Shown: positions 16,315 to 51,457, counted from the first letter of the stretch. The stretch is 64,000 nt of DNA from an uncultured Pelagibacteraceae bacterium (GCA_902590345.1 CACIWK010000002.1:30625-94624), one strand, 5' to 3'. Numbers and translations: made by a program. Notes: generated by a model from the sequence alone, not told the origin.

Positions 16315-16792
16315 TTGATCTTGCAATACTGCTCTCTACTTTTGAAATCATGATTTGAAGAGCATTTTTTGTTGCATTTCTTGTCATACTTTTTTTCATA
16401 TCTTCGTTATTGAATTCTGACTCACCAACATCGTATTGTGCAAAGCCTCTGGTTATTCCAGTTGACAAAATATTTTCCGTGCTTGTTTCAATAATTTCAA
16501 AATTTATTGATATCTCAATTCTGTATTTTGCTACTGTACCATTTGTATTAATGATTAAGGGTGTTTGTTCTTCTTGGATTTGAAGAAAAACTTCATACGC
16601 AAGATTATCTTTTGAGTGAATAGTTTTCTCAACTTCGTCTTGTATTTCTCTTGAAACCTTATTAACCAACTTTAAGCTGTAGTTTCTAATATCTAGATTA
16701 TCATTTGTAATTTTATAGATTGGACTGAAACCACAACTGATTAATAAAAAATACGCCCCTAATATAACAAGAACTGGTTTTGCTTTAATCAT
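16304..16792 (-). CDS. lptE: LPS assembly lipoprotein LptE
   Basis: Lipobox LISCGFSPIY; position between leuS and holA. Confidence 0.8.
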   Translation of the reverse strand: MIKAKPVLVILGAYFLLISCGFSPIYKITNDNLDIRNYSLKLVNKVSREIQDEVEKTIHSKDNLAYEVFLQIQEEQTPLIINTNGTVAKYRIEISINFEIIETSTENILSTGITRGFAQYDVGESEFNNEDMKKSMTRNATKNALQIMISKVESSIARSNDN

Positions 16793-18521
16793 TACTTAAT
16801 ATTTCTGTCATCTCTTTTAAATATGGCCCATAGCTCTCCCAAGCACCAATGGACTTTTTATTTATTGGTTGCCTAACTTGCTCAAGACTTGCAGTTCTTA
16901 CCTGTCTTTTATTTTTATAAAACTTCATACATCTCTCTTCCCATTTTAAACCACAAAAGTTCAGTAATTCAACCGTAACTTTTTTTTGATCATTCACCAA
17001 TTCTTCGTTATCAAGAATAAAAATATCTTCTTTAAATCTTTCCAGCCATACATGCATTAATTTTTCGTGTAAGAGATAGTAATCGGCGAGGGTTCTTTGA
17101 TTATAACAGTAAAGATGCCTTCCCTCCACAAACCTTTGGGTCAATAGAGAAAAACAATTATCTTCAGGTTTCCTCTTGCAGTAAATTATTTTTGACTCAG
17201 GTAAAATACATTTAATGAGATCTATTAAAAGAAAGTTGTGGGGCATTTTATCGCAAATAAATTTTTCACTATTTCTGTTAATACCTTCTAATAATTCTAG
17301 ATATTTTTCTCTTACAGATAAGAGAGTTTCTTTGTTTACTATATTTTCAAAATATTTATTAATATTATCGTTTTCTGGATTATTCATGACCTCTTGCAAA
17401 TTTGTTAGTTGTAATAGATAACGTAACTCCCCTGCTCCATATACTTCACTATGTGCGGACAAGATCTGCTCACATAAAGTTGTACCTGACCGCGGCATCC
17501 CACAAATGAATATAGGTACTAAAGAACTTTCTTTTTTTTGTATGGAAGGATAATCTCTGTGCTTACTAAGCTTTTCAAATAAAACTTGTTCCTTTTTAAA
17601 GTCATAGTCTTGGACTTCCAAACATAATTCATTCATTGTTTTAAGATATTCGTATGATTTTTTATAATTACCAACATTTCTGAAATACTCAAAAAATCCC
17701 TTAACCAGTGTAATTCTTTGATCCAAACTCAAGTCTGGATTATTAAGTCTAAGAGAAAAGAATTCAATCTCTTGATCATTTAATACATTTTCTCTATCGC
17801 TTGCATATTGAGCAAAAAATTGAATGAGATTTTTCACAGGCTCGTTTCTCATACGTTTACTAAATAAATTTTTAAATCCGTCGTTAACAATCTTTTTGGA
17901 TTTGTTAAAATCACCTGCTTCTCGATAAGCAGTAGCTAAATTAATTTGAAACTCTTCATTATCTGGGTAATCTTTAATAAGCCCTTCCATTAAATGAATA
18001 GCTTTTTCAATGTTATGATTTAAAACAAGCGCTTTAGCATGAGTGCTTATGGTTTTTGGGTTATTCGCATCAATTTTCATTAAAACTTCAGAAAATTTCA
18101 GTGAATTTTCACCATCACCCCTACGAGCATATAAATCAGCTAGATTGTTCACTGCTGGATAATATTCATTTGATATTGATAGTGATTTGTTAAAACATTT
18201 TACCGCTAGTTCATAATCCTTCACTAAAACGTATGAGGTGCCCATATTGTTATAAGCTTCATAGCCATTGGGATTTCTTTTTATACATTTTACAAAAAAA
18301 TCAAAAGACCTCTCAACTTTTCCCGTATCCTGATAAAGTATGCCTAAATGTCGATTTAATTCGTAGCTTTCGGGATGAGTAACAAGAAGTTTTTTATAGA
18401 TATTTTCAGCCTCGACAAATTTTCTTTTTTTGTGAATTTCTATTGCATTTACTAAAATATTAAAAAATTTTTTATCTTCTATACCTTTTCCCTTATTTTT
18501 TCTTCGCTCGTGTCTATTCAT
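16785..18521 (-). CDS. TPR repeat-containing sulfotransferase family protein
   Basis: N-terminal TPR-like repeats (AYNNMG, AVNNLA, INLATAY); PAPS-binding [21 protein letters not shown] and RTAS..QVRQPI motifs. Confidence 0.88.
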
Positions 18522-21090
18522 TTTTTGATATCACAATATTTAGAATTTTATTAGGGACAAATATTTTTTTAATTATAGTTGAGTGCTCGATTTGATCATT
18601 TACACTTTTGATATTTTTAATCTCAGCCATGACCTGCTCTTCGTTTGCTCCAACCTGGGTCTCAACTTCTGCTCTTCTTTTGCCATTAACTTGAATAACA
18701 ACTTTTGTTGTTTCTTCTATGAGATAACTTTCATCAACATTAGGCCAAGGCTCTGATGAAAGAGATGTTTTATTCCCACATAAACTCCAGCATTCCTCTG
18801 CTAAATGAGGAATCATTGGTTCAATTATACGAATTAGAATTTTAAGAGAAATTTTTAACGCAGATTTTTCAGTTTTATCTGCAACCTCAAATTTTGAAAT
18901 GTGATTTATTAATTCATAAATTTTTGCAACACCTACATTCATCTGGAAACTTTCAATACTTTTTGTAACAGCGTCTAGTGATTGGTAGGTTCTTTGTAGA
19001 AGGGTTTTTGCATTTGCTGTCTGATTTTCTTGCTCATCATTGATGTTTGTATCAATTAATATGTCAATATTTGAGGTAATAGTTGTCCAAATTTTTTGAC
19101 AAAACCTCCAAGAACCGTGAATACCAGCATCTGACCAATTAATATCTCGGTCGGGTGGGCTGTCAGATAACATAAACCATCTAGCAGAGTCAGAACCGTA
19201 ATTTTTAATTATTTCTTCTGGATCAATTACGTTTTTTTTAGATTTAGACATCGATTCATTTGCACCAATCGTCACATCTAACCCACTGGATACTTGATAA
19301 AATTTTCCATCTTTTTCTTCTACATCACTTGGAAATACCCATGCGCCATTTTTATTTTTATAGGTCGCGTGACACACCATACCTTGTGTGAAAAGTGATT
19401 TAAACGGTTCATTAACTTTTTTTATCTTCAAGGCTTTTGTAAAAAACCGTGAGTATAACAAATGTAATATTGCGTGCTCAATTCCACCTACATATTGGTC
19501 TACAGGCATCCAATAATCTATTTCGTTTTCATCAAAAGGAGTTTCACTTTTAGGTGAACAAAATCTCAAGAAATACCATGCTGAGTCAACGAATGTATCA
19601 AGAGTGTCAGTTTCTCTAATGGCTTTCATGCCTGTGTGAGGGCATGTCGTATATTTCCATTCCGGATGGTTTTCAAGTGGATTGCCTGATTGGTTTAAAT
19701 CAATTTCATCGGGCAATTTTACAGGCAAGTTTTTTTCAGGAACAGTAATTATTTCACCATCTTCACGGTACATTATTGGTATGGGACAACCCCAATAACG
19801 TTGTCTTGATATACCCCAATCTCTTAACCGATAATTGATTGATTTTTTACCAATATGCATTTTTTCTATTTCATTAATTATTCTATCTTTAGCATCATCA
19901 ATGTTTAAGCCATTCAAAAATGAAGAGTTGATCAGAGTTCCTTGTCCTGTATAAGCTTCGTCTTCCATGGAAGTATCTGAGTCTTGTGGCTTGATGACTT
20001 CAATAATTTCAAGATCATATTTTTTTGCAAAATCAAAATCCCTCTGATCATGAGCAGGACAACCGTAGATTGCGCCAGTTCCATAATCCATAAGAATAAA
20101 GTTTGCAATAAACAACGGCAATTTCTTACCCTTTATGAATGGATGTAAAATTCTTAGTGCTGTAGGAATTCCGATTTTTTCATTTTTTGATATAGTTTCT
20201 TCATTTAATTTTAATGATCGTAGTTTTTTTATTTCTTCGGCAGTGTCTGAGTCACATTTAAGTATTTGATCAACGAATGGATGAAAGGGTGAGATCGCAA
20301 TAAAAGTTGCTCCAAATATAGTATCGGGTCTTGTGGTGAAAATTTCTAATTTTTCGGGCTTATACTGACTATAATCAGACTCAATCTCAAAATGTATCTC
20401 ACATCCAATTGATCGACCAATCCAATTTTTTTGCATAGTCTTAACTTTTTCTGGCCAGCCGGGCATTTCGTCTAAACTCTCAAGGAGTTTGTTTGCATGA
20501 GAGGTTATTTTAAAAAACCACTGAGATAATTTTTTTTGCTCTACGTCAGCGCCCGATCTCCATCCTTTTCCATCAATAACCTGTTCATTTGCCAAGACAG
20601 TATTCTCAACAGGATCCCAATTGACAAGAGACTCTTTTTTGTAAATCAAATTTTGTTTATAAAATTGTAAAAATAATTTTTGTTGCTGATGATAATATTC
20701 TTTATCACACGTAGCCAATTCGCGATTCCAATCTATTGATAGACCCATTGATTTCAGTTGAGATCTCATAGTATTAATATTTTCGTAAGTCCATTTACTC
20801 GGAGAAATATTATTTTCAATAGCTGCATTTTCTGCAGGTAGGCCAAAAGCATCCCAACCCATTGGATGCATTACATTGAAACCTCTGGCTCTTTTGTATC
20901 TTGCTATAACATCACCAAGTGTATAATTCCTTACGTGCCCCATGTGAATCTTACCCGAAGGATAAGGGAACATTTCTAAAATATAATATTTCTCTTTTTC
21001 TTTATTTAGCTCGCTTTTGAAAGTTTTATTCTCTTGCCAGTAGGATTGCCACTTTGACTCAATTGATCTTGGGTTATACTTTTCAGACAT
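18514..21090 (-). CDS. leuS: Leucine-tRNA ligase
   Basis: [46 protein letters not shown] and SMSKS motifs. Confidence 0.99.
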
Positions 21091-21111
21091 TTAAATAAAC
21101 TAAGTTATTTA

Positions 21112-21666
21112 CTATGATAAGTCGACAGCGGTTTTGAGTGCGCGAGCCTCAGCTAAAATACTTTCTTTAATTTTAGTTGCTTTCTCTTCATCCATACCTT
21201 GATCAATCCACATTGAACCATCAAATTTTTGCGTAAACATTTGAACAGAAATTGAGTCATTAGTTAATTCACCGTCTAACAAACGGACATTAATTTTAAT
21301 TCTTAATTCATTTTCTTCAACTGCATACCAATCTGTAATGACAATACCTGACGCAGAGTCAACTGACGCTAATGGCATAAAACTTAGTTTGTCTAAAATT
21401 ACATTAAAAGTTAAACTATCGACTGCGATAGCTAATGACGCCGCATCATCTCCTAATACCATTTCCCTTAAGGACAAACCTTGGCCTTCCTCAAAAATAT
21501 TAGTATGTCTGGCTTGGCCTGGAGTCATGTTGCCTTTAACATGGTCTTCATGTGTAGTTTCATTACGCTCAATATCCAACTGAGCACAGCTATAAATAAA
21601 GAATAAAGTGAAAAATAGAAAAATATTATTTAAGGTGCCAATCTTCTTTACGAGCTTTGTAATCAT
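21112..21666 (-). CDS. DUF3576 family putative lipoprotein
   Basis: LSFMPLASVDSASGIVITDWY motif; lipobox-like IYSC; upstream of leuS and divergent from the porin. Confidence 0.8.
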   Translation of the reverse strand: MITKLVKKIGTLNNIFLFFTLFFIYSCAQLDIERNETTHEDHVKGNMTPGQARHTNIFEEGQGLSLREMVLGDDAASLAIAVDSLTFNVILDKLSFMPLASVDSASGIVITDWYAVEENELRIKINVRLLDGELTNDSISVQMFTQKFDGSMWIDQGMDEEKATKIKESILAEARALKTAVDLS

Positions 21667-21754
21667 AGGAATTTAAGATATTTCGCCCAATATAACAAAA
21701 AAGAGCATTACATCAAATTTTATAATAAAAACTGCAGTTTTCCAATAAATTTTC

Positions 21755-21795
21755 ATATGTGGTATTATTGCAACATATAAACACAAAAATTGTGT
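21755..21795. promoter_or_regulatory. Inverted repeats in the porin/DUF3576 divergent promoter region
   Basis: ATATGT-N12-ACATAT at 21755-21778 and ACACAA-N3-TTGTGT at 21781-21795. Confidence 0.45.
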
Positions 21796-21892
21796 CATAT
21801 ATACAAATACATTAATTTTTTATGAGTTTTTATATATATTATCGCTCAGTTAAATTTAACTATGATCAACTATCATAATGAAAGGAAAATTT

Positions 21893-22807
21893 ATGAATAG
21901 ATCAAAAATCTTAAGCGCATCTGCGTTGGCATCTTTGATGGCAGCTGGTGCAGCTCAAGCAGAAATGGCAGTAAGTGGTTATCTACTTGGTGCATTTTAC
22001 GATAGTGATGGTGGCGGACTAGCTAATGCTCACACATCAGAAACTGTTACAGTATCATACTCTGACAGTCTAAATAACGGTATGGGTCTTAGCGTTGCTA
22101 TGGACATTACTGATACACTAGCTACAAACGTATCAATCGACACTGGCATGGGAACAATTGGTTTCTCTGCTGATGGTAAACAAGATTCAGCTCTTGATAA
22201 AGTTGATGGATCAACAGCGTGTTTTGGATTGTACTATTGTTCAAATGCTTACAGCACAGTTAGTGGCGGTGGAACATACAATGATGGTGATTCACTATCT
22301 GGTAATTCAATCGGATACATATCTCCTTCAATCAACGGCTTTACAATTAGAGCTACTCATGGTCTAGAGACTTCTGGATCAGTTCTAGGTGTTGATTCAA
22401 TCGGAGTAACTGGATCAATCATGGGTGTTACTGTTAAAGCTGGTATGGCTGACATTAACTATGACCAAGCTGGTGGTAGCACAGGAACTGACAATACGCC
22501 TTCTATGTATGCGCTCGGTTACTCAATTGCTGGCTTAGATCTAGGTTATGCATTCTATGACTCTGATGACACTGCAAGTTCTGAGGAAACTCAGTACGGT
22601 GTAGGTACATCTGTAATGGGAATGTATGTTGGTGCTCAGTTTGGTGCACATGACACAACTGGAAACGACACAGACTACATGACTTTATCTGCGATCAAAG
22701 ACATGGGTGCTGCATCGTTCTCATACGAGTACATTGAGACAGATCAAGCTGGTGGCACTACAAACGATAGTGATGCACACTACTTTGCTTACTCAATTGG
22801 TTTCTAA
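21893..22807 (+). CDS. Major outer-membrane porin (alphaproteobacterial Porin_4-like)
   Basis: Signal peptide ending AAQA; G/D/S/T-rich beta-strands; IGYISPSINGFTI; C-terminal AYSIGF. High-expression codon choice, AAGGA SD before 21893 and a strong terminator. Confidence 0.88.
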   Translation: MNRSKILSASALASLMAAGAAQAEMAVSGYLLGAFYDSDGGGLANAHTSETVTVSYSDSLNNGMGLSVAMDITDTLATNVSIDTGMGTIGFSADGKQDSALDKVDGSTACFGLYYCSNAYSTVSGGGTYNDGDSLSGNSIGYISPSINGFTIRATHGLETSGSVLGVDSIGVTGSIMGVTVKAGMADINYDQAGGSTGTDNTPSMYALGYSIAGLDLGYAFYDSDDTASSEETQYGVGTSVMGMYVGAQFGAHDTTGNDTDYMTLSAIKDMGAASFSYEYIETDQAGGTTNDSDAHYFAYSIGF

Positions 22808-22826
22808 GTTAATTTAATTTAACTTA
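22803..22826. repeat. AT-rich palindrome TAAGTTAA-N6-TTAACTTA, copy 2
   Basis: Near-identical to 11116-11138 (one extra T); overlaps the porin stop codon. Confidence 0.55.
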
Positions 22827-22835
22827 AAAATTATT

Positions 22836-22873
22836 AAAACACCCTGCGCAGTTATTGCGTAGGGTGTTTTTTT
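22836..22873 (+). terminator. Intrinsic terminator of the porin gene
   Basis: AAAACACCCTGCGCA-GTTAT-TGCGTAGGGTGTTTT hairpin running into a T-tract. Confidence 0.92.
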
Positions 22874-22884
22874 ATGTTTAGACT

Positions 22885-23538
22885 ATGATAATGTACGAAA
22901 ACTTTCTGGCCGAATTTAATAAAGCTGTATTAGAATCTGGGCGTGACATAGAGGAAATAGAACTGATTGCTGTAAGCAAAAAAAAACCACTAGATGCTAT
23001 TCGAAAAGTTTTTGATGCAGGACATCTTTCTTTTGGAGAAAATCAAATTCAAGAAATTGAAAGTAAATGGATTGATTTTAAAAAAGAAAATACGAACCTA
23101 ATTCTACATTACGTAGGCTCAATTCAAAGTCGCAAAACTAGTTCAATACTGGAACATTGCGATGTGATTCATTCTGTTGATAGATTGAAAGTTATAAAGT
23201 TAATAAAAGAGTTTGAAAATAGTACAGGTATTCAAAGAAAATATTTTCTTCAAATCAATACTGGAAATGAACCACAAAAATCTGGAATATTGCTAAATGA
23301 AGCTGAAAGTTTCATTGAAGATTGTAAGAATGTTCATAATTTCGATGTCTTTGGTTTAATGTGTCTACCACCAATTGATGAAGACCCTTCTAGACACTTC
23401 AATATATTGAGAGGACTTGCCAAAAATCATAAATTATCTTCGTTAAGCATGGGAATGTCGCATGATTTTAAAACTGCAATAAAATGCGGAGCAACACACA
23501 TTCGTATTGGCACTTCTATTTTTGGTGAAAGAGTCTAA
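22885..23538 (+). CDS. yggS: Pyridoxal phosphate homeostasis protein YggS/PipY
   Basis: LIAVSK, FGENQIQE, HSVDR, GLMCLPP, LSMGMS.D and RIGTSIFG motifs. Confidence 0.95.
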   Translation: MIMYENFLAEFNKAVLESGRDIEEIELIAVSKKKPLDAIRKVFDAGHLSFGENQIQEIESKWIDFKKENTNLILHYVGSIQSRKTSSILEHCDVIHSVDRLKVIKLIKEFENSTGIQRKYFLQINTGNEPQKSGILLNEAESFIEDCKNVHNFDVFGLMCLPPIDEDPSRHFNILRGLAKNHKLSSLSMGMSHDFKTAIKCGATHIRIGTSIFGERV

Positions 23539-24029
23539 TTTTTAATTTCAATTACTGTATCGTTATTTATTTGATTCACGATTTTCAACAAATCTTCCTT
23601 ACTTAGCGCGACACAACCCAAAGTACCTCGATAGTCTGCATGAGCGATATGCAAAAAAATTGCACTTCCCTTACCGGGCACAGTAGGACTTATATTATAA
23701 TTTATTACACATACAATGTCATACAAATCATCGTCTCGATATAACTTTTCAGCGCTATGAGCAAATGGGAATTTGATAAACTGATTATAAAATTCACTAT
23801 CTGGATCATCACACCAGCCATCATTTTTTGAAATTTTCAATGCATTCTTATTAAAAATAATAGATTCTAACTTGTCGGCTCGATAATAAATTTCATTGAA
23901 TTTGTATACACCAGCCGGTGTACGGCCATCGCCTTCCTTTTTATTTTCGGTTATTCCATTCTTCCCAACTGCACATGGGAATTTAAGATTGTTAAAATAT
24001 AAAAAGTTTTTTTGTAATATAAATTTCAT
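23535..24029 (-). CDS. L,D-transpeptidase (YkuD-like) family protein
   Basis: KKEGDGRTPAG, WCDDP and catalytic GSAIFLH...TLGCVA motifs. Confidence 0.88.
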   Translation of the reverse strand: MKFILQKNFLYFNNLKFPCAVGKNGITENKKEGDGRTPAGVYKFNEIYYRADKLESIIFNKNALKISKNDGWCDDPDSEFYNQFIKFPFAHSAEKLYRDDDLYDIVCVINYNISPTVPGKGSAIFLHIAHADYRGTLGCVALSKEDLLKIVNQINNDTVIEIKN

Positions 24030-24052
24030 CCGATATTATATTATCTAATAAA

Positions 24053-24700
24053 ATGAAAACTATATCTATAATTGTTGCTGAAAAAGTATTAAAAAATATA
24101 TTTATAGAAGTTATTGGTGAGATTAATAAGGATTTTACTTACAATTACGAAATTCATGAGGAATATTCTGAAAACAATCAAAGTTCTGTTGCAATTATAT
24201 TAGATATTGAAAGTTTCAAAAATATATCAAATCCAGAACTTATAAATAATCAATTATTTATAATTAAAGATGGTTACCCAATTTCATTTAATCAAAATAT
24301 CAACCCAGTTTTAATCGATAGGCCATTTAAAATATTTGATCTGTTTTCCACCGTTGAAAGTAATTTAATTCAAACTAATAAACTGGATCAAAAAAAAATA
24401 AAGTTTAAAAGCCATATTTTTGATCCTCAAACAAGAATAATAAAAAAAGATAAAAAATCTGTAAGACTCACTGAGAAAGAAAGTGAAATTTTTATTGCTT
24501 TAGTTAAGAGTAAAAACATGTATTTAAGTAAAAAATTTTTATTACATAAAGTATGGCAATATAGCAATGAGGTAGATACTCACACACTAGAAACACACTT
24601 ATATTCCTTAAGAAAGAAAATTGATAAAAGTCTAGGAACTAAAAATTTAATAATTTATGAAGAAAAAAAAGGGTATTTAATCAATAAAAACTTATTATAG
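24053..24700 (+). CDS. OmpR-family winged-helix regulator, CenR-like, with a degenerate receiver domain
   Basis: LTEKE and VW.Y...VDTHTLETHLYSLRKKI wHTH motifs; N-terminal domain only weakly receiver-like. Confidence 0.8.
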   Translation: MKTISIIVAEKVLKNIFIEVIGEINKDFTYNYEIHEEYSENNQSSVAIILDIESFKNISNPELINNQLFIIKDGYPISFNQNINPVLIDRPFKIFDLFSTVESNLIQTNKLDQKKIKFKSHIFDPQTRIIKKDKKSVRLTEKESEIFIALVKSKNMYLSKKFLLHKVWQYSNEVDTHTLETHLYSLRKKIDKSLGTKNLIIYEEKKGYLINKNLL

Positions 24701-42917: not shown

Positions 42918-43880
42918 ATGTCAAATTTAAATAAAATTTTAGTTGGAATCAGAGACAGTGAACTATCAAGGACGCAAACTAATTTACTGCTTAATCAGTT
43001 AATAAGTGTTTCTGATAATATAGACATTGAGACATTTGATATAAAAACTATAAAAACAAAAGGGGATGTTCATAACGAGCAGCGTCTTGATCAAATAGGT
43101 GGCAAAGGGTTATTTATAAAGGAAATTGAAGAACACATAAAAAGAAGTAAGGTTGATGTAGGTATTCATTCCATGAAAGATGTACCCGCCGAAGAGGACG
43201 GTAATGAACTTGAAATTATTTGTTGGTTTAAGCGTGAAAACCCATGCGAGGCCCTTCTATCTAATTCAGGTCAAAATTTTTTTGATTTATCTCCTGGATC
43301 AGTTATCGGCACAAGCTCAATCAGAAGACGCGCCCAAATTCTCAATTTGAGAAAAGATCTAAAAATAAAATTACTTAGAGGAAATGTAGATACTCGTATC
43401 AGAAAACTAAAGGAAAATAATTATGACGCAATCATACTTAGTGTAGCGGGATTAAAACGGCTTGGACTGACCGAGCGCATAACAGAGGAACTAAGTGACG
43501 AACAATTTCTTCCTGCTGCATGTCAGGGCACAATTGGAGTGCAGTCAAAATGCAACAGTAATTTAAAAAAAGTATTTGAATTGATTAATCACGATGAAAC
43601 AAAAATGGAATCAATAACCGAAAGACAAGTTTTAAAAAATATTAATGCTAATTGTAACAGCCCAGTATCTGTTTATGCAAAAATTGTAAACAATATGATT
43701 TCAGTTCAATGTGATATTTTTGATCATGATGGTAATAAGTTATTTTCAAATAAAATTTCCAAGGAGAAAGAAAATTATATCAAAATTGCAAACACACTTT
43801 CACAAGAAATTTTAAATGATCTTGGTCAAGAAAAAATAAATAAACTAAATGAACTAGATGATTTTAATTACACGCCTTAA
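42918..43880 (+). CDS. hemC: Hydroxymethylbilane synthase (porphobilinogen deaminase)
   Basis: GGKGLFIKEIE, HSMKDVP, GTSSIRR, RGNVDTR, LPAACQG and ANCNSP motifs. Confidence 0.95.
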   Translation: MSNLNKILVGIRDSELSRTQTNLLLNQLISVSDNIDIETFDIKTIKTKGDVHNEQRLDQIGGKGLFIKEIEEHIKRSKVDVGIHSMKDVPAEEDGNELEIICWFKRENPCEALLSNSGQNFFDLSPGSVIGTSSIRRRAQILNLRKDLKIKLLRGNVDTRIRKLKENNYDAIILSVAGLKRLGLTERITEELSDEQFLPAACQGTIGVQSKCNSNLKKVFELINHDETKMESITERQVLKNINANCNSPVSVYAKIVNNMISVQCDIFDHDGNKLFSNKISKEKENYIKIANTLSQEILNDLGQEKINKLNELDDFNYTP

Positions 43881-44568
43881 GGAAGATAATACAACGATCA
43901 AAAAAAAGTTAGATGCTTTTAAAATTAAAAGCTCAGCAGAACCACTTTATAAAATAGAATATCTGTCCAAGAAAATAAATCATGAAGATGAAAAAACATT
44001 TATTGTAGCCAGTAAGCAGGCAGTTAAGGTTATTCACTCAAATGTTAAGAAAGGAAATTTAAAAAAGAGTATTTTTCTTGTCATTGGGAAACAATCTTCT
44101 CTTCAACTAAAAAAATTGGGATTAAAAGTTAAGATAGTTGCACAAAATAGCCATGAGCTAATAAAAATAATAAAAAAAAATAAATTGTACGAGAAGGGTA
44201 AATTTGAATACCTCTGTGCAAATGCTTTTAACAAAGATTTTTTTTCAAGACTGTGTGACATCAATAAGAGTACAAAAAAAAACGTTCTCTATAATTTAGT
44301 TCCTAATCAGAAATTTTCAGAAAAAACGCTTAAACTTCTTAGGCAACAAAATATTACGATCGTTTTATTTTTTTCAAAATTTTCTTGTAATACTTTTTTT
44401 CAATTATGCAGATCTCATAAATTAAACAGAAAAAATCTTAATGGAATTCAATACATCACCTTAAGTAAAGAGATTGCGGATTTGCAGTGTCTTAAGGCAT
44501 ACAAGGTCAGCTGGGCTAATCGTCCTAATTTAGCTTCAATGCTTCAAAAGGTGGCATCCATTTATTAA
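43858..44568 (+). CDS. hemD: Uroporphyrinogen-III synthase
   Basis: MILITR start, SKQAV and LFFS motifs; overlaps the hemC 3' end; divergent sequence. Confidence 0.75.
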   Translation: MILITRLKEDNTTIKKKLDAFKIKSSAEPLYKIEYLSKKINHEDEKTFIVASKQAVKVIHSNVKKGNLKKSIFLVIGKQSSLQLKKLGLKVKIVAQNSHELIKIIKKNKLYEKGKFEYLCANAFNKDFFSRLCDINKSTKKNVLYNLVPNQKFSEKTLKLLRQQNITIVLFFSKFSCNTFFQLCRSHKLNRKNLNGIQYITLSKEIADLQCLKAYKVSWANRPNLASMLQKVASIY

Positions 44569-44744: not shown

Positions 44745-44804
44745 TTGACTAAAGTCAATTTTTTAAGTTCAATAGTTCAAATTTAGCAATATTCTTATTG
44801 CTGA
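44745..44804 (+). promoter_or_regulatory. Putative promoter/operator and leader hairpin of the DUF1302 operon
   Basis: TTGACT-AA-AGTCAA dyad (44745-44758) on a CTTGAC -35-like hexamer; AGTTCAA-T-AGTTCAA direct repeat (44766-44780); AGCAATA-TTCT-TATTGCT dyad (44785-44802); strong GGGGAG SD downstream. Confidence 0.5.
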
Positions 44805-44830: not shown

Positions 44831-47539
44831 ATGTTAAAAAAATCAATTATGTCACTTGTGTCTACACTTTTATTTGTAGTTGCGAGTTTTACTACTTCAA
44901 ATGCGACTGAAGTTAACCTTGGAGGATTTACGGGTAACGTTTCAACAATTGTTACTCATGGATTTTCAATAAGAACAGAAAAAAATAACTGCTTTCTAGT
45001 TTATGGTGCCGCAAACGATCAAACGGATGCACAAAAAGCCTTGATTGGTGGAGCACCATATAAGGGTAATGGTGGCTGTAACTACGAGCGTGATGATAAC
45101 TTCGCTGCTACAACAACGGGTAGAGAGATTCATGTTGGTTCAGTTATGGGTGACGATGGTCGTCTTAACTTTGATAGAGGCGATGTAATTGATGCTGGTC
45201 AGTCTCTTGCATTGAGTTTTACAGGAAGCAATCCTGATGGCGTGAGATTAAACTTATCAGGTGTTGCATTAGTGAACCCAGTATTAGATATTAACGATGT
45301 AGCTTTTAAAGCTCTAACTGGTGCTGCAAAAGATCATCTTGAAAGCAATATTAAATTAGGTAACGCATTTATCTCTGCTCCTGTTTCTCCCAATATAGAT
45401 ATTACCCTTGGTAATTATGTTCAAAGTCAGGGTGTAACTGCTTTGTTCCCAATTGGTGTTAATGTAGTAAATCCAGTTTCTCTCCCAATTCTACGATCAC
45501 CTGGTGCACAATTAAAAGATGCATTACTTCCTCAAGCAATGTTAGGAGCTACCGCATATCTTGATGGCGGTGTTACCATGGATGCTTATTATCAACTCGA
45601 GCAAAAAGAAATTGAGTTAGATGCTGCTGGATCTTTCTTTGGTAGTGAAGCTGTAGGTGTTGGAAGCAACACAGGTTTTATCAGTGCAGCAAATGTTAAT
45701 GAAGGTACGGGGCCAGTAGATGGTAACTACTTTGATGTTGCTGAATGTGTTAAAGGAGTATCAAGAGTTAATTTGGCTGCCGTCGGTTCTGCTGGATTAT
45801 GTGACTCATCTAATGCAGATCACCTATGGGGTGACAATGAGGATGGTTGGTCAGTCTTTATGGGCTTACAAGATGATACCTTCGGAACTGGATACAATTC
45901 AACTGCTATAGGAATAGGACTTGCTAATCAAGTTACTGCCCTTGGCGACATAGAATCCATATTTGAGGGTGTTGCTGCTGGTGCAAGTCTTGAGTCAGCT
46001 TGGGATCTACTTCCAGGTCATGCATCAAGTGCAGACACTGATCATGATATGAGCGATACAAGAATTCGAAATGCTTTCACAAAACTATATACTCAATATC
46101 CTGGATTTGGGGATATGAGAGGTCTAGTGTACATTAGAAGAGCAAACGATGCGGAAGCCCCATCAACAGGTCAGTTCGGTTTAAATTTAACTGGCTACCT
46201 TGACAATGTAGGTACAGGACTTGAGTGGGGACTATATTATAACAACTCACACAGTAATGCTCCGAGACTGAGAATGCTCGCTATTGCTGATGGGTATGCA
46301 ACAGATATGTTTGCAATGTTAAATAATTTAACCACTGCTACTCCAAATGGTTTAGGACAATACGATCCAACAAATGGCGCAGTGACTGTGACTGAACAAG
46401 CAATCATGTCGATTGCAGCTGGTCCGTCAGTTTGTGCACTAATAAATGATGCTACAGGTGCTTTCCAAGGTGGTGCTGCAGGTGGTACTGCTACTCACTT
46501 ACACGATCCTTCACTTTGTTATAAGGCACAGGCTCAAGCTACTGCTGCAGGAGGTGAAATCGCTAATGCTGGTGGTCTCGATGCAATTTTAGGTGCAACC
46601 AACGGTGCGATTGCAACTTTAGCATTTGTAAATGGCGGAAGGTTCCAAGCATATTATCCTGAGGATATCCAGACTTTTGGTCTTTCATTATCTACAGGTC
46701 TCAATGGTTGGGCATCTAATTTAGAAATTGCTTTCAGACCTGACTATCCATTCCAGGTGGCTGGTGATGATTTAATTAGAAACTTAATTGATAGTACATA
46801 TGGTACTGCAGTACAAAGTACAGTTGCAGCTATTGCAGTGAATGATTTGTTGCCTTTAGTTGCGTCTACTAAGTGGTCTGCACAACCTAACTGTGATATC
46901 ACTTCAACAGGAGGAAAAGCTGCTCCAAACGCGGCAGGCTATGTTGCTTGTGATGGAACAGCTGAATTTGATGCGTGGACACTTAATGCAAACTTTGCAA
47001 AATCATATACAGCATCTGAGCCATTTGTAGTGAATTCGGGTGCTGACTCAGCATTTGTATTAGTTGATATTGGTGCCGTCTCGGTTCCTGATTTAAACTA
47101 TGCACAGGGTGTGGTTGCATCAGGTCAGTTCCAATCAGGATTTGACGTGCTTCAAAACGGTTGTAATAATGCGGCTGGAGCATACGCACTTTCTCAGCAA
47201 TCAAACGGACTCTTTGGAGACGATTACTGTGAGGACGATGCTGGTCCTGATAAGAACGCAATCTCATATAAATTGCGTGGTGGATTAACTTATAATAACT
47301 TCAACAACACAAAATGGTCTTTTTCACCATCACTTGGTTTTAATCATGATGTAAAAGGAAATGCACCTTCTTCTCTTGGTGGATTTGTTGAGGGTAGAAT
47401 GAGTGCTTCTGCTTCTGCAGCATTTACTTCTGGTGGCATGACTACAAGTGTTAGTTACCAAATGGAGCTAGGTGATGAACTTAATAACTCGAGTGTTGAC
47501 AAAGACTATGTCTCTGCCAACTTCTCATATGCATTTTAA
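44831..47539 (+). CDS. DUF1302 family outer-membrane beta-barrel protein (AupA-like)
   Basis: Signal peptide; DDGRLNFDRGD, LRSPGAQLKDALLP, YYQLE..ELDAAGSFF, GQFGL, YPEDIQTFGLS and NHDVKG motifs; C-terminal DKDYVSANFSYAF. Confidence 0.85.
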   Translation: MLKKSIMSLVSTLLFVVASFTTSNATEVNLGGFTGNVSTIVTHGFSIRTEKNNCFLVYGAANDQTDAQKALIGGAPYKGNGGCNYERDDNFAATTTGREIHVGSVMGDDGRLNFDRGDVIDAGQSLALSFTGSNPDGVRLNLSGVALVNPVLDINDVAFKALTGAAKDHLESNIKLGNAFISAPVSPNIDITLGNYVQSQGVTALFPIGVNVVNPVSLPILRSPGAQLKDALLPQAMLGATAYLDGGVTMDAYYQLEQKEIELDAAGSFFGSEAVGVGSNTGFISAANVNEGTGPVDGNYFDVAECVKGVSRVNLAAVGSAGLCDSSNADHLWGDNEDGWSVFMGLQDDTFGTGYNSTAIGIGLANQVTALGDIESIFEGVAAGASLESAWDLLPGHASSADTDHDMSDTRIRNAFTKLYTQYPGFGDMRGLVYIRRANDAEAPSTGQFGLNLTGYLDNVGTGLEWGLYYNNSHSNAPRLRMLAIADGYATDMFAMLNNLTTATPNGLGQYDPTNGAVTVTEQAIMSIAAGPSVCALINDATGAFQGGAAGGTATHLHDPSLCYKAQAQATAAGGEIANAGGLDAILGATNGAIATLAFVNGGRFQAYYPEDIQTFGLSLSTGLNGWASNLEIAFRPDYPFQVAGDDLIRNLIDSTYGTAVQSTVAAIAVNDLLPLVASTKWSAQPNCDITSTGGKAAPNAAGYVACDGTAEFDAWTLNANFAKSYTASEPFVVNSGADSAFVLVDIGAVSVPDLNYAQGVVASGQFQSGFDVLQNGCNNAAGAYALSQQSNGLFGDDYCEDDAGPDKNAISYKLRGGLTYNNFNNTKWSFSPSLGFNHDVKGNAPSSLGGFVEGRMSASASAAFTSGGMTTSVSYQMELGDELNNSSVDKDYVSANFSYAF

Positions 47540-47557
47540 TTTAGGGAGAGGAATAAA

Positions 47558-48775
47558 ATGAATAAATTAAATATAAGAAACTTAATTATCTCACTGGTAG
47601 CGGCTTTAGGTCTTTCGGTTACAACGGTTGTTGCTGATGGCCATAAGTACACCATTGATGGTTCTAACTACACATCTTACACAGATAAGTTGTCACCTGG
47701 ACAAATTACAATGTTCGCAGCTTATCCTGAAACATATAAGATGAACGTTTATGAAACTGGTCCTGATTGTCAACTCGCTCCATCCATTGCAGCTATATCA
47801 ACCACAAATGGTACTATGGTGAATGACAATGAGGGTATTGAAGTTCCAAACTTGGGTCAAGTTCCTTTCCCAAATCCTACTGACGCCCAACATTTTATTT
47901 GGAATATGAGAACTAATGCTGGTCATGACTCTTCAGTTTATCGTGTTGCAACCTCAACAAATGTTCAAGCTGATGGATCAATTATAATTGGTCAGCAAGA
48001 AACAAACATTACATTCCCTGCTAATCCAAATACCGTTTCAAAATATGCAGATAAAAATATCTATGCAATGTTCATGCAAAAAAACTTAGGACCACCTAGG
48101 TCTGCAGGAGTTACAACTCTCGTGCATGACTTTTTTGACGGGTATCTTGCACCTCGTAAAGCATGGCAGTATAACCCTGCCACAAGACGTGTAAGAAGAG
48201 CACCTGACATTACATATGACACGGTTCTTCTTGCTGGTGGCGGTATCGTTGTTGTTGATCAATATAATGGGTTTAATGGTGCGCAAGATAAATATGATTG
48301 GACATATGAGGGTAAGAAAACAATGGTTGTTCCATTTGACAACGATGCGCTGGCTGATAACGCTCTTGAGACAACACACTCTCAATTCCACTTGAATCCT
48401 GACTATGTTAGATTTGAAGAAAGAGATGTTCATATTGTTCACGCGCAATTAAAACCAGGACAAAGACACCTATATGCTTCACGTACTTTCTATATTATGG
48501 ATGATGATTTTTATCATTTATCAATCATGGATGCTTATGACGAAGCTGGTGAGTTAATGAGACACCAAATGGGAACTGTCATCAGATCTGTTGAAGGTAC
48601 AGATCCTACCACATGTAATGGTCAAGGTGAGTTTACTCATGACTTTGCTACAAGAACATATACTGGTAATAACCAACTTGGTGCTGCCTTCAGTACACTT
48701 CCAACTATTTATAACGGTGAAGAAAAGCCAGCAAGCTTTTACACACCTGATGGTTTAAGAAGATACGCAAGATAA
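47558..48775 (+). CDS. DUF1329 family periplasmic protein (AupB-like)
   Basis: Signal peptide; DKLSPGQ..MF..YP.TYKM, VPFPNP, AWQYNPATRRVRRAP..YD, GFNGA.D.YDW, LKPGQRHLY and YD..G.L motifs; C-terminal TPDGLRR. Confidence 0.88.
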   Translation: MNKLNIRNLIISLVAALGLSVTTVVADGHKYTIDGSNYTSYTDKLSPGQITMFAAYPETYKMNVYETGPDCQLAPSIAAISTTNGTMVNDNEGIEVPNLGQVPFPNPTDAQHFIWNMRTNAGHDSSVYRVATSTNVQADGSIIIGQQETNITFPANPNTVSKYADKNIYAMFMQKNLGPPRSAGVTTLVHDFFDGYLAPRKAWQYNPATRRVRRAPDITYDTVLLAGGGIVVVDQYNGFNGAQDKYDWTYEGKKTMVVPFDNDALADNALETTHSQFHLNPDYVRFEERDVHIVHAQLKPGQRHLYASRTFYIMDDDFYHLSIMDAYDEAGELMRHQMGTVIRSVEGTDPTTCNGQGEFTHDFATRTYTGNNQLGAAFSTLPTIYNGEEKPASFYTPDGLRRYAR

Positions 48776-48800
48776 GTCAGTATCAATAGATCTTTAATTT

Positions 48801-48839
48801 AGAACCCGACTTGAAATTTCAGAGTCGGGTTTTAGTTTT
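48801..48839 (+). terminator. Intra-operon intrinsic terminator / stabilising hairpin
   Basis: AACCCGACT-TGAAATTTCAG-AGTCGGGTT stem followed by an interrupted T-tract (TTAGTTTT). Confidence 0.8.
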
Positions 48840-48847
48840 AAGTTGTT

Positions 48848-49975
48848 ATGTATAAGATTTTCCTATTTGTACTGAGTGCAGTTTTTTTTATAAATGCTGC
48901 GATAGCTTCCCAATTTAACTACGGTTCGGAGTTTGCAGCAATTTCACCAAATGCACATAAGACAACCATTACAGCTCTTGAGAAATCTGGTGACAGAATA
49001 TTTGCTGTTGGAGTGCATGGTATTATTTTATACTCTGATGATGAAGGTGAGACATGGACTCAATCAGAGAAAGTTCCATTTAAGAAAACACTGACAGATA
49101 TTAGTTGTCCGAGCCAAAATAAATGCTGGGCAACTGGTCATGATGCAACAATATTGCACTCTTTTGATGCAGGAAAAACTTGGCAAATCCAATATCAAGA
49201 TTTTGATTTTGATGCTCCTTTACTTTCAATTCACATGTACGATGATTACGAGGGAGTTGCTCTTGGAGCTTTTGCCTTGTCACTGAGAACAGCTAACGGC
49301 GGTATAAGTTGGGATTATCTTTTTGTTGATGACGATGAATACCAACCGCATATAAATTATACTTATGGAGATAATCAGGCTTGGAGAAAATCTGCTCGAG
49401 ATGAAGGATTTGCTGTTGGTGAATTCGGAAAGTATTATGTTACTGATGATAGAGGTTTAAATTGGCTTGCAATTGAAACTGGATATATGGGATCCTATTG
49501 GTCAGGCATAAAAGTTGATGAGGGTCAGTCTCTTTTGCTTGGTATGTCGGGTAATATTACTTTAGCAACTCTTTATGAGATCAATGATGAAGTACCATCT
49601 AATAAGCTTACATCTATTGCTTGTTACGAGGCTGGTTATTTTAGAGGTGACTGCAAAGTATATGCATTTGATGACTTATTCATTGGTACTAAAAATAGCT
49701 TAACAAATGCTGATCTTTTAGAAGATGGAAGAATTGTGATGAGCGGAAACGGTGGAGTGGTAACGGTGATAGATATGGTAAGAGATAAAACAATCAAAAC
49801 TTGTGTTCGATCAGATCGTTTAAGTAATACTTCAATTATTCCACTTGGTACTGATAATTTCTTAATTGCTGGTGAACAGGGGATGCGTAAACATAGTATG
49901 GAAGAATGTTATCAAAACTTTGTTTCGGAAACTTCTACATCACAAGATACATTTTATGAAATTAATATAAATTAA
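48848..49975 (+). CDS. YCF48/BNR (Asp-box) beta-propeller protein
   Basis: AVGVHGIILYSDDEGETW, GHDATILHSFDAGKTW, GAF...RTANGG.SW and TDDRGLNW Asp-box repeats; signal peptide. Confidence 0.88.
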   Translation: MYKIFLFVLSAVFFINAAIASQFNYGSEFAAISPNAHKTTITALEKSGDRIFAVGVHGIILYSDDEGETWTQSEKVPFKKTLTDISCPSQNKCWATGHDATILHSFDAGKTWQIQYQDFDFDAPLLSIHMYDDYEGVALGAFALSLRTANGGISWDYLFVDDDEYQPHINYTYGDNQAWRKSARDEGFAVGEFGKYYVTDDRGLNWLAIETGYMGSYWSGIKVDEGQSLLLGMSGNITLATLYEINDEVPSNKLTSIACYEAGYFRGDCKVYAFDDLFIGTKNSLTNADLLEDGRIVMSGNGGVVTVIDMVRDKTIKTCVRSDRLSNTSIIPLGTDNFLIAGEQGMRKHSMEECYQNFVSETSTSQDTFYEININ

Positions 49976-50745
49976 TGTCACGTGTAGCTGGTAAGGTAGC
50001 AATAATAACTGGAGCTGCTTCAGGATTAGGTTATGCGGCCGCGGTTAAACTTCTTTCAGAAGGAGCTAAAGTGGTACTTTCAGATATTAATGAAGAAGTA
50101 ATTAATACAATGCCTGATCGATTAAGTGATTTTAGTAAAACTCAGTTCAGTACATTTGTTCATGATGTAACTAATGAGCAATCTTGGGTTGATTTAATTG
50201 AAAAAACTGAAACAGAATTTAGTCATGTAAATATACTTGTAAATAGCGCCGGTATATCTCTTGGTGCAGATGTAGTTTCCACAGAGTTTGAAATTTGGAA
50301 AAAGGTACACCAAGTAAATCTAGATAGTGTCTTTCTTGGATGTAAATATGCCGTACCAAAAATGAGTAAAGCGGGACAAGGCTCGATCATTAATATTTCT
50401 TCAATATCAGGAATTGTTGCTGGTTGGAATACGGCTGCTTATAATTCATCAAAAGCTGGAGTGCGTTTACTCAGTAAGTCAGTTGCACTATATTGTGCCA
50501 AAAAAGGCTATGATGTGAGATGTAATTCTGTTCACCCGGCATTTGTAGATACTCCTATTCTTGATCCAATTAAGCAGGCTTTTGGTGCTGAGGAAGCTGT
50601 AGCAAAGCTTGCGCGTCAAATTCCAATGAATAAGATTGGAGATACAGACGATGTATCGTATGCAATTTTGTATTTAGCATCTGATGAGAGTAAATTTATG
50701 ACAGGGACAGAAATTGTTCTTGATGGTGGATTAAGCGCAATGTAG
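49975..50745 (+). CDS. SDR oxidoreductase (3beta-hydroxysteroid/cyclopentanol dehydrogenase-like)
   Basis: TGAASGLG, NSAG, YNSSK and RCNSVHPAFVDTP motifs; TAATG overlap with the upstream gene. Confidence 0.88.
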   Translation: MSRVAGKVAIITGAASGLGYAAAVKLLSEGAKVVLSDINEEVINTMPDRLSDFSKTQFSTFVHDVTNEQSWVDLIEKTETEFSHVNILVNSAGISLGADVVSTEFEIWKKVHQVNLDSVFLGCKYAVPKMSKAGQGSIINISSISGIVAGWNTAAYNSSKAGVRLLSKSVALYCAKKGYDVRCNSVHPAFVDTPILDPIKQAFGAEEAVAKLARQIPMNKIGDTDDVSYAILYLASDESKFMTGTEIVLDGGLSAM

Positions 50746-50761
50746 TTTCATTCTTGAGACT

Positions 50762-51457
50762 ATGAAAATAAAAAAAGCATTAATGATTGTACACCAGCCT
50801 CGATCAAGTACTGGAGATGTGGGAATGAAATTACGTGAAAGAGGGTATGAACTTGACGTTCGAAGACCAGTCATAGGTGAAAAGCTACCTCAATCAATGA
50901 ACGATCATGATGTTGCAGTAATTTACGGAGGACCTCCCAGTGCTAATGACGATATAGATTATATTAAGTATGAAATTGAATGGATTTCAAAGGCATTATC
51001 TTCTAATAAGCCGTTTCTTGGTATTTGTCTGGGAGCACAAATGCTTGCAAAAAATTTGGGAGGTAGCGTTCAACGTGCAAAAGACAATCAATTTGAAATT
51101 GGTTTTTATGATATAAAGCCAACTGGAGATGGTCACAAAATATTTCAAAACCAAAAAACTTTTTTTCAATGGCATAAAGAGGGTTTCACAGTACCTAAAT
51201 CCTGTGAAATTTTAGCGTTAGGTGAAACTTTCCCTCAACAAGCATTTAGTTATAAAAATGCAGTTGGTATACAATTTCACCCCGAGGTTAATCTTAAGAT
51301 GCATTTAAGGTGGCTATATTTTGCAGGATACATGCTTCGAGAGAAGGGCGCACAAAAACGTCATTATCAAATGCAGCAACGACTTAGTCATGGAAAAAAA
51401 ATCAATATGTGGTTAGACTCCTTTATAGATAATTACTTTCTCAGAGATAAATCATGA
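50762..51457 (+). CDS. Class I glutamine amidotransferase (GMP synthase-like, stand-alone)
   Basis: GGP.SAND, GICLGAQ, QWH and QFHPE catalytic motifs. Confidence 0.88.
   Translation: MKIKKALMIVHQPRSSTGDVGMKLRERGYELDVRRPVIGEKLPQSMNDHDVAVIYGGPPSANDDIDYIKYEIEWISKALSSNKPFLGICLGAQMLAKNLGGSVQRAKDNQFEIGFYDIKPTGDGHKIFQNQKTFFQWHKEGFTVPKSCEILALGETFPQQAFSYKNAVGIQFHPEVNLKMHLRWLYFAGYMLREKGAQKRHYQMQQRLSHGKKINMWLDSFIDNYFLRDKS

Follow-up and report, generated by a model that had tools for sequence, protein, structure and literature searches.

The systems closest to the locus considered here have been described in other bacteria. AmeABCD of Castellaniella defragrans comprises a DUF1302 outer membrane protein (AmeA), a LolA-like DUF1329 protein (AmeB), a Ycf48-like protein of COG4447 (AmeC), and an HAE3-type protein of the resistance-nodulation-division (RND) class (AmeD) (PMC6394551). 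A cofitness module of DUF1302, DUF1329, COG4447 BNR and COG1033 RND proteins was reported by Price et al. for Shewanella, Kangiella and Pseudomonas (bioRxiv 10.1101/072470), and in P. putida PP_0765/PP_0766, with the PP_2018/PP_2019 homologues, were found to be needed on Tween 20 and butyl stearate (Thompson et al., bioRxiv 10.1101/2020.07.04.188060). Here and below, statements about published systems refer to the consulted portions of the sources. A related set of genes lies at positions 44831 to 50745 of a 64,000-nucleotide stretch of DNA from an uncultured Pelagibacteraceae bacterium (GCA_902590345.1 CACIWK010000002.1:30625-94624), which we call the window and whose numbering is used throughout. 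Our analysis suggests that these genes probably encode three of the four components of an envelope system of the AmeABCD type, namely the outer ones, with an HAE3/AmeD-type RND protein encoded at a distance as the fourth, and that the enlarged barrel of this system recombines.

An initial annotation of the window had described four co-oriented genes at these positions. ORF calling recovered them there exactly, and Pfam searches confirmed all four family assignments. The first gene (44831..47539, + strand, as are all features listed below for this locus) encodes a DUF1302 outer membrane β-barrel of 902 aa (280 bits, cut-off 23.2) with a signal peptide and a C-terminal Phe. The second (47558..48775), starting 18 nt past the barrel stop, encodes a LolA-like periplasmic DUF1329 protein of 405 aa (295 bits, with a weak LolA_like match), the counterpart of AmeB, to which we refer as the carrier. 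It lacks a lipobox cysteine and has a single N-terminal hydrophobic stretch resembling a cleavable signal peptide, as judged by eye and with no predictor; a sequence search of solved structures returned no relative of this protein. The third gene (48848..49975) encodes a Ycf48-like BNR/Asp-box β-propeller of 375 aa with a signal peptide (PSII_BNR 55 bits, cut-off 27, plus Asp-box), the counterpart of AmeC. It matched Ycf48-like chains of the PDB at 47 bits in a sequence search; the COG4447 assignment itself is unscored. The signal-peptide-like N-termini of the barrel, carrier and propeller were read by eye. The fourth gene (49975..50745) encodes a cytoplasmic classical short-chain dehydrogenase/reductase (SDR) of 256 aa. 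As the initial annotation had noted, its start overlaps the stop of the propeller gene (TAATG), and the barrel gene directly follows hemC and hemD, both identified by Pfam.

The assembly that holds the window (G000; other G numbers denote compared genomes, and C numbers contigs) comprises 1.01 Mb in 28 contigs, is rated 76% complete, and has a G+C content of ~33%; the window lies on contig C2. Judging by the names of two close homologues, those of the barrel and the RND protein, the host belongs to a Pelagibacterales (SAR11) family distinct from the Pelagibacter family. We surveyed 200 genomes of the order, 59 from this Pelagibacterales family and 141 from the sister family, for which many complete genomes of 1.2-1.5 Mb exist. 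In its own genome the window's propeller is the sole PSII_BNR match and the barrel the sole DUF1302 match; DUF1329 is present twice.

The initial annotation had read the four genes as an AupAB-like uptake operon with an inner membrane component either unlinked or missing. MMPL matches were found at two places in the genome, in SecDF and in an 893-aa protein on contig C5, which matches MMPL (78.9 bits), ACR_tran and Patched. For comparison, we sampled 20 DUF1302 loci from 18 other proteobacterial genomes, fetching 19.8 kb for each. An RND gene stood beside the propeller gene in 13 of them, as the initial annotation had expected for such loci, and the other 7 had no pump inside the fetched stretch. 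Aligned with the C5 protein, the RND proteins of the 13 loci show 35-43% identity across its N-terminal 590 residues and 39-53% across its C-terminal 190, with about 110 residues of the C5 protein (~590-702) outside the alignments to canonical pumps. In whole-genome searches of five gamma- and betaproteobacterial genomes, each genome contained one RND protein that was the best match of the C5 protein (37-43% identity, E values of 1e-122 to 1e-155), whereas the remaining RND proteins reached at most 29% identity and E values of 1e-9 or worse. The gene for this best match was seated with a BNR gene in a DUF1302 cluster in four of the five genomes; in the fifth, G347, the neighbours were not inspected. 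Because there is a single, far-best RND match per genome, and because it is cluster-seated in four of them, we regard the C5 protein, on the strength of these comparisons, as an orthologue of the AmeD lineage. Hence "unlinked" was the apt half of the earlier wording, and "missing" was not.

These results bear directly on the operon as it was first conceived, namely an AupAB-like, TonB-independent uptake system without an RND partner, in which the SDR replaces the pump and all four genes form one heavily expressed operon. Several observations agree with it. There is no RND gene at the window locus or in 25 syntenic loci of relatives, the SDR start does overlap the propeller stop, Pfam finds DUF1302 alone in the barrel at E values up to 0.01, with no plug domain, and no TonB_C match was obtained in the 76%-complete genome. 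However, a conserved AmeD-type RND orthologue is present, and a conserved hairpin, described below, splits the four genes. The SDR has no signal peptide and carries its cofactor motif near its start (TGxxxGxG, here TGAASGLG, residues 12-19), and it therefore cannot replace a membrane pump. Nor does the comparison with AupAB favor this reading. AupA of Marinobacter hydrocarbonoclasticus is described as FadL-like and 21% identical to FadL, not as a DUF1302 protein, and AupB as an inner membrane protein of unknown function that interacts with AupA (PMC5989066); neither "DUF" nor "Pfam" occurs in the consulted text of that paper. FadL chains matched the AlphaFold2 model of the window's barrel in part, over ~485 alignment columns and with target TM-scores of 0.27-0.30. 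The operon without an RND partner is thus largely refuted, and we consider it very improbable. What does hold up is the proposal that the envelope system handles hydrophobic molecules and has its inner membrane part encoded elsewhere. We also observed one TonB-dependent-receptor-like barrel (771-aa frame) on contig C1 (C1:39918-41267) of the same genome; as the assembly is 76% complete, the negative TonB_C result has no bearing on the presence of TonB.

The distribution of the four families across the survey fits an AmeABCD-type system with a detached pump. DUF1302 and the propeller were each found in 52 of the 59 genomes of this Pelagibacterales family and in none of the 141 genomes of the sister family. 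The RND protein was found in 55 of the 59 and in 1 of the 141, the latter at 21% identity. DUF1329, for which the search covered the 59 genomes of this family, was found in 56 of them, mostly as two full-length copies. The genomes of the family are related by descent and thus non-independent, so that this co-occurrence amounts to one pattern, not 59 tests. In a sample of the phylum (400 genomes plus the window's own), DUF1302 was matched in 103 of 401 genomes, two of them labelled as the same class as the window, and strong canonical matches corresponded to frames of about 530-760 aa.

Within contig reach, the gene order tsaD / hemC-hemD-DUF1302-DUF1329-BNR-SDR-GATase-YGGT-folD / argG-rlmN was kept in 25 of 26 family loci, the 26th being a second barrel copy elsewhere in one genome. 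The four system genes do not form a single cassette here. The RND gene and the barrel gene lie on one contig in eight relatives, and the distance between them is 110-120 kb in each. The absence of an RND gene from the syntenic loci and this constant spacing in eight genomes indicate that the separation of the pump from the barrel locus is old and stable, and that it is not a recent rearrangement. In agreement with this, an arrangement with an adjoining MMPL gene in close relatives, which would have made the locus a simple rearrangement, was not seen in the 25 loci.

The neighbourhood of the RND gene on C5 (L007:7867-12899) was inspected as well. A lone DrrA/GldA-like ABC ATPase gene is convergent with the RND gene and overlaps its 3' end. 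The other neighbour is divergent and encodes a 399-aa protein with two E..H motifs and no match in Pfam or PDB; in a protein atlas it looks AurF-like (ferritin-like di-iron oxygenase; score 0.97), which we treat as a lead only. The triplet of ATPase, RND and 399-aa genes was kept in 5 of 5 genomes of the genus that were examined.

A second DUF1329 gene stands apart in the window's genome (contig C4:40241-41533; L008:8242-9534, minus strand). It encodes 430 aa (340 bits), has no barrel gene near it, and is closer to canonical DUF1329 proteins (29-39%) than the copy at the barrel locus is. Next to it is an inositol monophosphatase-family gene, and a few genes away are an SCP2 sterol-transfer-family gene and an α/β hydrolase gene. 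In one genome of another genus of the family, the locus L070 (G051:C9:22100-38100) holds a second DUF1302 gene that is longer still (1144-1158 aa). Its surroundings differ from those of the window's barrel gene, and neither DUF1329 nor BNR genes are found close to it.

If the four proteins work together in this lineage, as we infer, hydrophobic or amphiphilic molecules would pass the barrel, one of the two DUF1329 carriers would shuttle them across the periplasm, and the RND protein would receive them at the inner membrane. The transfer of cholesterol from NPC2 to NPC1 serves as our model for the step between carrier and RND protein. Co-folding of the carrier with the propeller gave a median ipSAE of 0.60 (0.65, 0.53 and 0.60 in the three runs, best control 0.00), with partner pLDDT values of at least 87 and at least 95% of contacts shared between runs. 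We rate this as weak support for a contact, since 116 of 157 solved complexes and 2 of 215 mismatched pairs passed the mark, and since 18 of the passing solved complexes, along with both passing mismatches, lie at an ipSAE of 0.60 or lower; these counts are approximate, as custom alignments were used.

The direction of transport is a guess. We put the chance that molecules move inward, as in harvest, a little below even. Somewhat less probable, but a serious contender, is the same four-part machine working outward, the direction suggested for AmeABCD and implied by the idea that a cell-wall component is exported. Export is the usual role of RND proteins. The published results on AmeABCD favor export, and in this respect speak against inward transport: deletion of ameABCD lowers monoterpene tolerance and raises Nile Red accumulation, and the HAE3 relative HpnN moves hopanoids outward (PMC6394551). 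Price et al. likewise proposed the export of a cell-wall component for their module (bioRxiv 10.1101/072470). On the other hand, a detoxifying pump would seem of little use in dilute seawater to a cell with a ~1.3 Mb genome, the P. putida homologues are needed for growth on fatty esters (bioRxiv 10.1101/2020.07.04.188060), and the presence of two carrier paralogues per barrel and of a co-inherited, alcohol-dehydrogenase-like SDR fits intake at least equally well. None of these points is decisive.

The barrel is considerably larger than canonical DUF1302 proteins. Its AlphaFold2 model, built from a 75-sequence alignment, had a pLDDT of 88.2 and a pTM of 0.88. Foldseek placed it next to Campylobacter MOMP, AlgE, OccAB/OccK and BenF-like channels (target TM-scores 0.47-0.58). 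The query TM-scores to AlgE, Occ and MOMP were low (0.24-0.28, at 5-8% sequence identity), because about one third of the barrel is extra helical loop material without a counterpart in those proteins. Alignment to a profile built from 19 canonical DUF1302 sequences located the lineage-specific insertions at residues 66-101, 297-423, 489-583 and 677-697, which together with some shorter runs make up 326 inserted residues. The inserted segments are mostly helical in the model and all lie in odd-to-even strand connections, whereas the even-to-odd turns are only 2-12 residues long. They are also the least conserved segments of the protein (conservation of 0.26-0.33, versus 0.55-0.75 in the strands). 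By the usual rule for outer membrane proteins, such long loops point outward according to strand parity. The model thus suggests that the inserted loops face the cell surface.

The barrel might instead be an abundant general porin or structural surface protein, with the distant RND protein acting independently, like HpnN, and the shared distribution being coincidental and ancestral. The RND gene never adjoins the barrel gene in this Pelagibacterales family, the Foldseek neighbours are substrate channels and porins, and the co-occurrence could reflect one ancestral event, all of which would agree with this explanation. However, the RND protein on C5 is the specific orthologue of cluster-linked pumps and not of other RND proteins, the carrier and propeller genes stay with the barrel gene in 25 of 25 syntenic loci, and the genome has a separate Porin_4 protein (21878-22807). 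We therefore consider a general porin quite unlikely and retain the AmeABCD-type system.

The most unusual feature of the locus is the extreme mosaic variability of its enlarged barrel, which the initial annotation did not mention. Within the genus (16 barrel sequences after filtering), the median pairwise identity of the barrel was 32%. Only hemD (27%) was lower, while values for the other genes rose from 57% for hemC, 65% for the propeller and 67% for the carrier to 84% for the SDR, 88% for folD, 91% for argG and 95% for rlmN. The median over all 351 pairs of the 27 barrels was 38%. Compared with G001, the barrel was the least conserved of 54 window orthologues (29%; median 90.6%), and compared with G006, hemD (31%) and the barrel (45%) were among the three least conserved of 60 (median 92.8%). 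The core region is otherwise conserved, and the barrel and hemD thus stand out in it as a divergence island, of which hemD (43858..44568, HEM4, 67.7 bits) is the left part. Variability is greatest in the inserted loops, which in the median pair are 23% identical, versus 47% for the remaining barrel. In the protein database, the nearest non-self barrel clusters were 70% and the next 43-54% identical, whereas about 105 of 120 RND clusters among the matches listed were at least 80% identical. Misassembly and gene decay were considered as causes and rejected, as 25 independent contigs agree in gene order and internal stops are absent.

Barrel identity did not follow that of the genomic backbone (Spearman 0.14, versus 0.77 for tsaD). 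In 101 genome pairs both folD and argG were at least 95% identical; their barrels ranged in identity from 28 to 90%, with 75 pairs below 45%. In G016 and G047 the carriers are 96% identical and the barrels 29%; in G002 and G064 the barrels are 85.5% identical and the carriers 64%. Barrel and carrier genes thus move independently of each other. One barrel allele class even spans two genera, with G016 and G008 being 56-60% identical to G043. At synonymous sites, the divergence (dS) between G014 and G056 was about 1.35 in the barrel gene, whereas the adjacent carrier gene had a value of 0.14 and folD one of 0.41. Between G014 and G084 it was 0.46-0.51 in the barrel gene, versus 0.25 and 0.155, respectively. 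Barrel synonymous divergence was thus up to ~ten times that of the adjacent gene. The excess of barrel dS over flanking-gene dS suggests that the barrel alleles are older than their flanks and that recombination has acted among long-separated allele lineages.

A variable barrel could also arise from relaxed constraint or from locally raised mutation, without any selection on a surface protein. In favor of this explanation, and against selection for change in the barrel, dN/dS nowhere reaches 1. For the two least saturated pairs it was 0.27 and 0.42 for the loops, 0.10 and 0.15 for the barrel core, and 0.035-0.07 for neighbouring genes, so that positive selection is unsupported. Moreover, the neighbouring hemD, which does not encode a surface protein, varies as much as the barrel, and a second variable island (15289-24700) includes housekeeping genes such as that for LeuRS, at 67%. 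However, this second island also holds an outer membrane porin, and the 57 barrel gene matches from the order are all intact and free of internal stops. The high dS, the missing correlation with the backbone and the allele class shared by two genera argue for the exchange of alleles from old lineages and not merely for fast drift. Relaxed constraint as the whole cause seems unlikely to us. The allele diversity of the barrel is best explained by frequency-dependent pressure of phages or grazers on an exposed surface protein, together with recombination. Doubtful, though possible, is the more far-reaching proposal that the barrel is the main exposed protein of this SAR11 family and the principal recognition target of phages (or grazers), with an old polymorphism of its cap loops that recombination moves between lineages and that is shared across species and, for one allele class, genera, and that its channel feeds a lipid-harvesting RND protein.

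The variability of hemD may be due to hitchhiking with the barrel alleles, to a property of the region, or to unusually weak constraint. BLAST missed hemD in some close relatives at E values of 1e-5 to 1e-8, yet Pfam recognizes the window copy. The second island consists of nine adjoining genes that are 43-68% identical to their counterparts in G006 and G001, where the window median is 91-93%. These are holA, a gene for a 162-aa unknown protein, a TPR-sulfotransferase gene (43-45%), the LeuRS gene (67-68%), a DUF3576 gene, the gene for the Porin_4 outer membrane porin mentioned above (21878-22807; 49-50%), a YggS-like gene, and genes for a YkuD transpeptidase and an OmpR-type regulator. An outer membrane barrel is thus found in this island as well as in the DUF1302 one.

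The four genes appear to be divided between two transcription units. An intrinsic-terminator-like hairpin (AACCCGACT ... AGTCGGGTT) followed by a T-run lies between the carrier and propeller genes (48803..48839, + strand). Its folding energy is -20.8 kcal/mol (z -5.04), and none of 200 shuffled sequences folded equally well. Among the corresponding intergenic stretches of 25 relatives, 22 contained the full hairpin and 3 ended after its 5' arm, where the ORF caller had picked an earlier start. In other genera, the stem sequence is changed and the structure retained. Upstream of the barrel gene, a putative, unmapped sigma-70 promoter (44745..44773, + strand) can be recognized from the sequence, with TTGACT, a 17-nt spacer and TTCAAT. 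The TTGACT box, often inside TAATTGCTTGACTAAA, was seen by eye in 17 of the 26 upstream stretches taken from relatives (last 130 nt of each). A consensus scan listed neither the hairpin nor the promoter-like site, both of which were found by reading and folding, and Rfam identified a single tRNA in the window and no RNA family within the 262-nt leader region. The initial annotation had reported strong Shine-Dalgarno sequences before the first two genes, and G-rich ribosome-binding motifs are indeed found there (GGGGGAG before the barrel, GGGAGAGG before the carrier); no such motif precedes the propeller gene. Based on the conserved hairpin with its T-run and the promoter-like motif, the barrel and carrier genes appear to form a transcription unit of their own, with the propeller and SDR genes behind an attenuating terminator. 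The earlier notion of one operon does not agree with this arrangement.

Seawater RNA libraries contain this locus. Twenty runs held 41-57% of the sampled words of the stretch, and in each of 4 runs from four studies, library contigs covered most of the barrel and carrier genes at 95-100% identity. One library contig (X2 record 15, 48724-48911) spans the hairpin. Contig depths summed to 5-150 in the barrel and carrier genes, to 0-3 in the propeller and SDR genes, and to ~0 in hemC, hemD and most flanks. We rejected this depth as evidence of expression level, because contig depth is unusable for ranking and because the runs had been picked using this very stretch. A step of this kind would fit a strongly expressed two-gene unit ending at the hairpin; we did not count it.

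Several observations weigh against the proposed AmeABCD-type system and its setting. The best NCBIfam model for the C5 protein, HAE3 (TIGR00921), gave 196 bits, which is below its cut-off of 351.9. The partnership with the RND protein is derived from orthology and from co-occurrence at the family level, and the latter may reflect one single gain. Seven genomes (G046, G070, G089, G091, G098, G100 and G113) had the RND without a DUF1302 match and four (G008, G011, G020 and G054) had DUF1302 without an RND match; all eleven are incomplete (54-93%). The host is placed by two homologue names only, and the outward orientation of the loops is deduced from strand parity in a predicted model only. As for abundance, the RNA contigs demonstrate presence and cannot rank genes by expression, and the codon adaptation index gave no sign of high expression. 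With a small reference of five genes (S12, S7, EF-G, S10 and L3), the barrel gene ranked at the 44th and the carrier gene at the 56th percentile of 866 ORFs, contrary to the porin-like codon usage that had been claimed for both.

Downstream of the SDR gene, Pfam identified a gene for a class-I glutamine amidotransferase-like protein (50762..51457, + strand; GATase 75.6 bits; NCBIfam PRK06490 at 289 bits, below its cut-off), a YGGT gene and folD. The amidotransferase-like gene is the last of a five-gene block that is specific to this Pelagibacterales family at the hemD-YGGT backbone site. Two loci of the sister family have the backbone tsaD / hemC-hemD-(361-aa gene)-YGGT-folD. Where these two loci have a single gene, five genes, including those for the SDR and the amidotransferase-like protein, occupy the site in the window's family. 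The 361-aa gene in one of the two loci (L078, 12431-13516, sister-family genome G039) encodes an MscS-type mechanosensitive channel by Pfam. In five sister-family genomes, the best matches of the SDR and the amidotransferase-like protein were merely 31-36% identical. They were dropped as synteny anchors in that family on these grounds, and hemC, YGGT and folD were used instead.

The SDR (adh_short_C2 200 bits, adh_short 163 bits) is, by its sequence, a classical short-chain dehydrogenase/reductase whose substrate is not readable from sequence. Among proteins of solved structure it comes closest to R-specific alcohol dehydrogenases (213 bits) and 3α/20β-hydroxysteroid dehydrogenases (203 bits); the initial annotation had already noted a likeness to hydroxysteroid and cyclic-alcohol dehydrogenases. 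The match to NCBIfam PRK07069 (332 bits) falls just short of the cut-off of 339. The tie between the SDR and the block is one of inheritance. The position of its gene had been taken to mean that it stands in for the pump, an interpretation superseded by the AmeD-type RND protein that is encoded on C5 and conserved across the family.

Relatives of SAR11 rank with the most abundant marine cells, and little in their small genomes goes unused. If our reading is right, a whole family of this order keeps a four-part, lipid-type envelope transporter that the well-studied Pelagibacter family lacks, which would point to a difference in the dissolved organic matter that the two groups use or shed. With its mosaic of old alleles, the barrel is a specific candidate for the site at which phages or grazers recognize the cells of this uncultured lineage, and the mosaic could be tracked directly in metagenomes. 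If the more far-reaching proposal also holds, the cell would trade nutrient access against viral attack at a single protein, and the barrel would correspond, at the level of protein, to the hypervariable glycan regions of marine bacteria. Furthermore, the natural variation of the barrel marks exposed versus constrained parts of the uncharacterized DUF1302 fold.

Compared with AmeABCD, the same four kinds of proteins are encoded in this genome. However, the pump gene of this lineage lies ~115 kb from the other three, so that the genes are not one cassette, the barrel has 902 aa and four inserted loops where AmeA has 605 aa, and the RND protein on C5 has ~110 extra residues (roughly 590-702) relative to canonical pumps. 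The locus also lies in a core biosynthetic context and not in a catabolic island, and it is known here from sequence alone. The Pseudomonas systems share the four families, and DUF1329 paralogues occur there too (bioRxiv 10.1101/072470, 10.1101/2020.07.04.188060). A split is already known from P. stutzeri and P. putida, which have barrel and carrier at one site and propeller and pump at another. In the lineage studied here, in contrast, the split falls between propeller and pump, with the propeller kept with barrel and carrier, an arrangement not seen among the 20 sampled loci of other genomes. The model of a Pseudomonas DUF1302 protein published in 2026 is an 18-strand barrel close to AlgE/Occ channels, with an AlphaFold-Multimer ipTM of 0.84 with DUF1329 and no solved structure (PMC13499233); the window's barrel shares its 18-strand-class channel fold and the same structural neighbours. 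AupAB resembles the locus as a two-gene system of an outer membrane protein and a partner, with hydrophobic substrates and in a marine bacterium (PMC5989066). It differs in that Pfam assigns the window's barrel to DUF1302 only, FadL aligning in part; this comparison uses the description of the Aup proteins and not their sequences. We found no publication joining DUF1302, DUF1329 or HAE3 with SAR11 in a search that left most subscription journals outside. As far as searched, three features are therefore new relative to the known systems: the module as a conserved core locus of one family of the SAR11 order, a pump gene stably set apart from its three partners, and an enlarged barrel with the behaviour of a surface protein that recombines and is deeply polymorphic.

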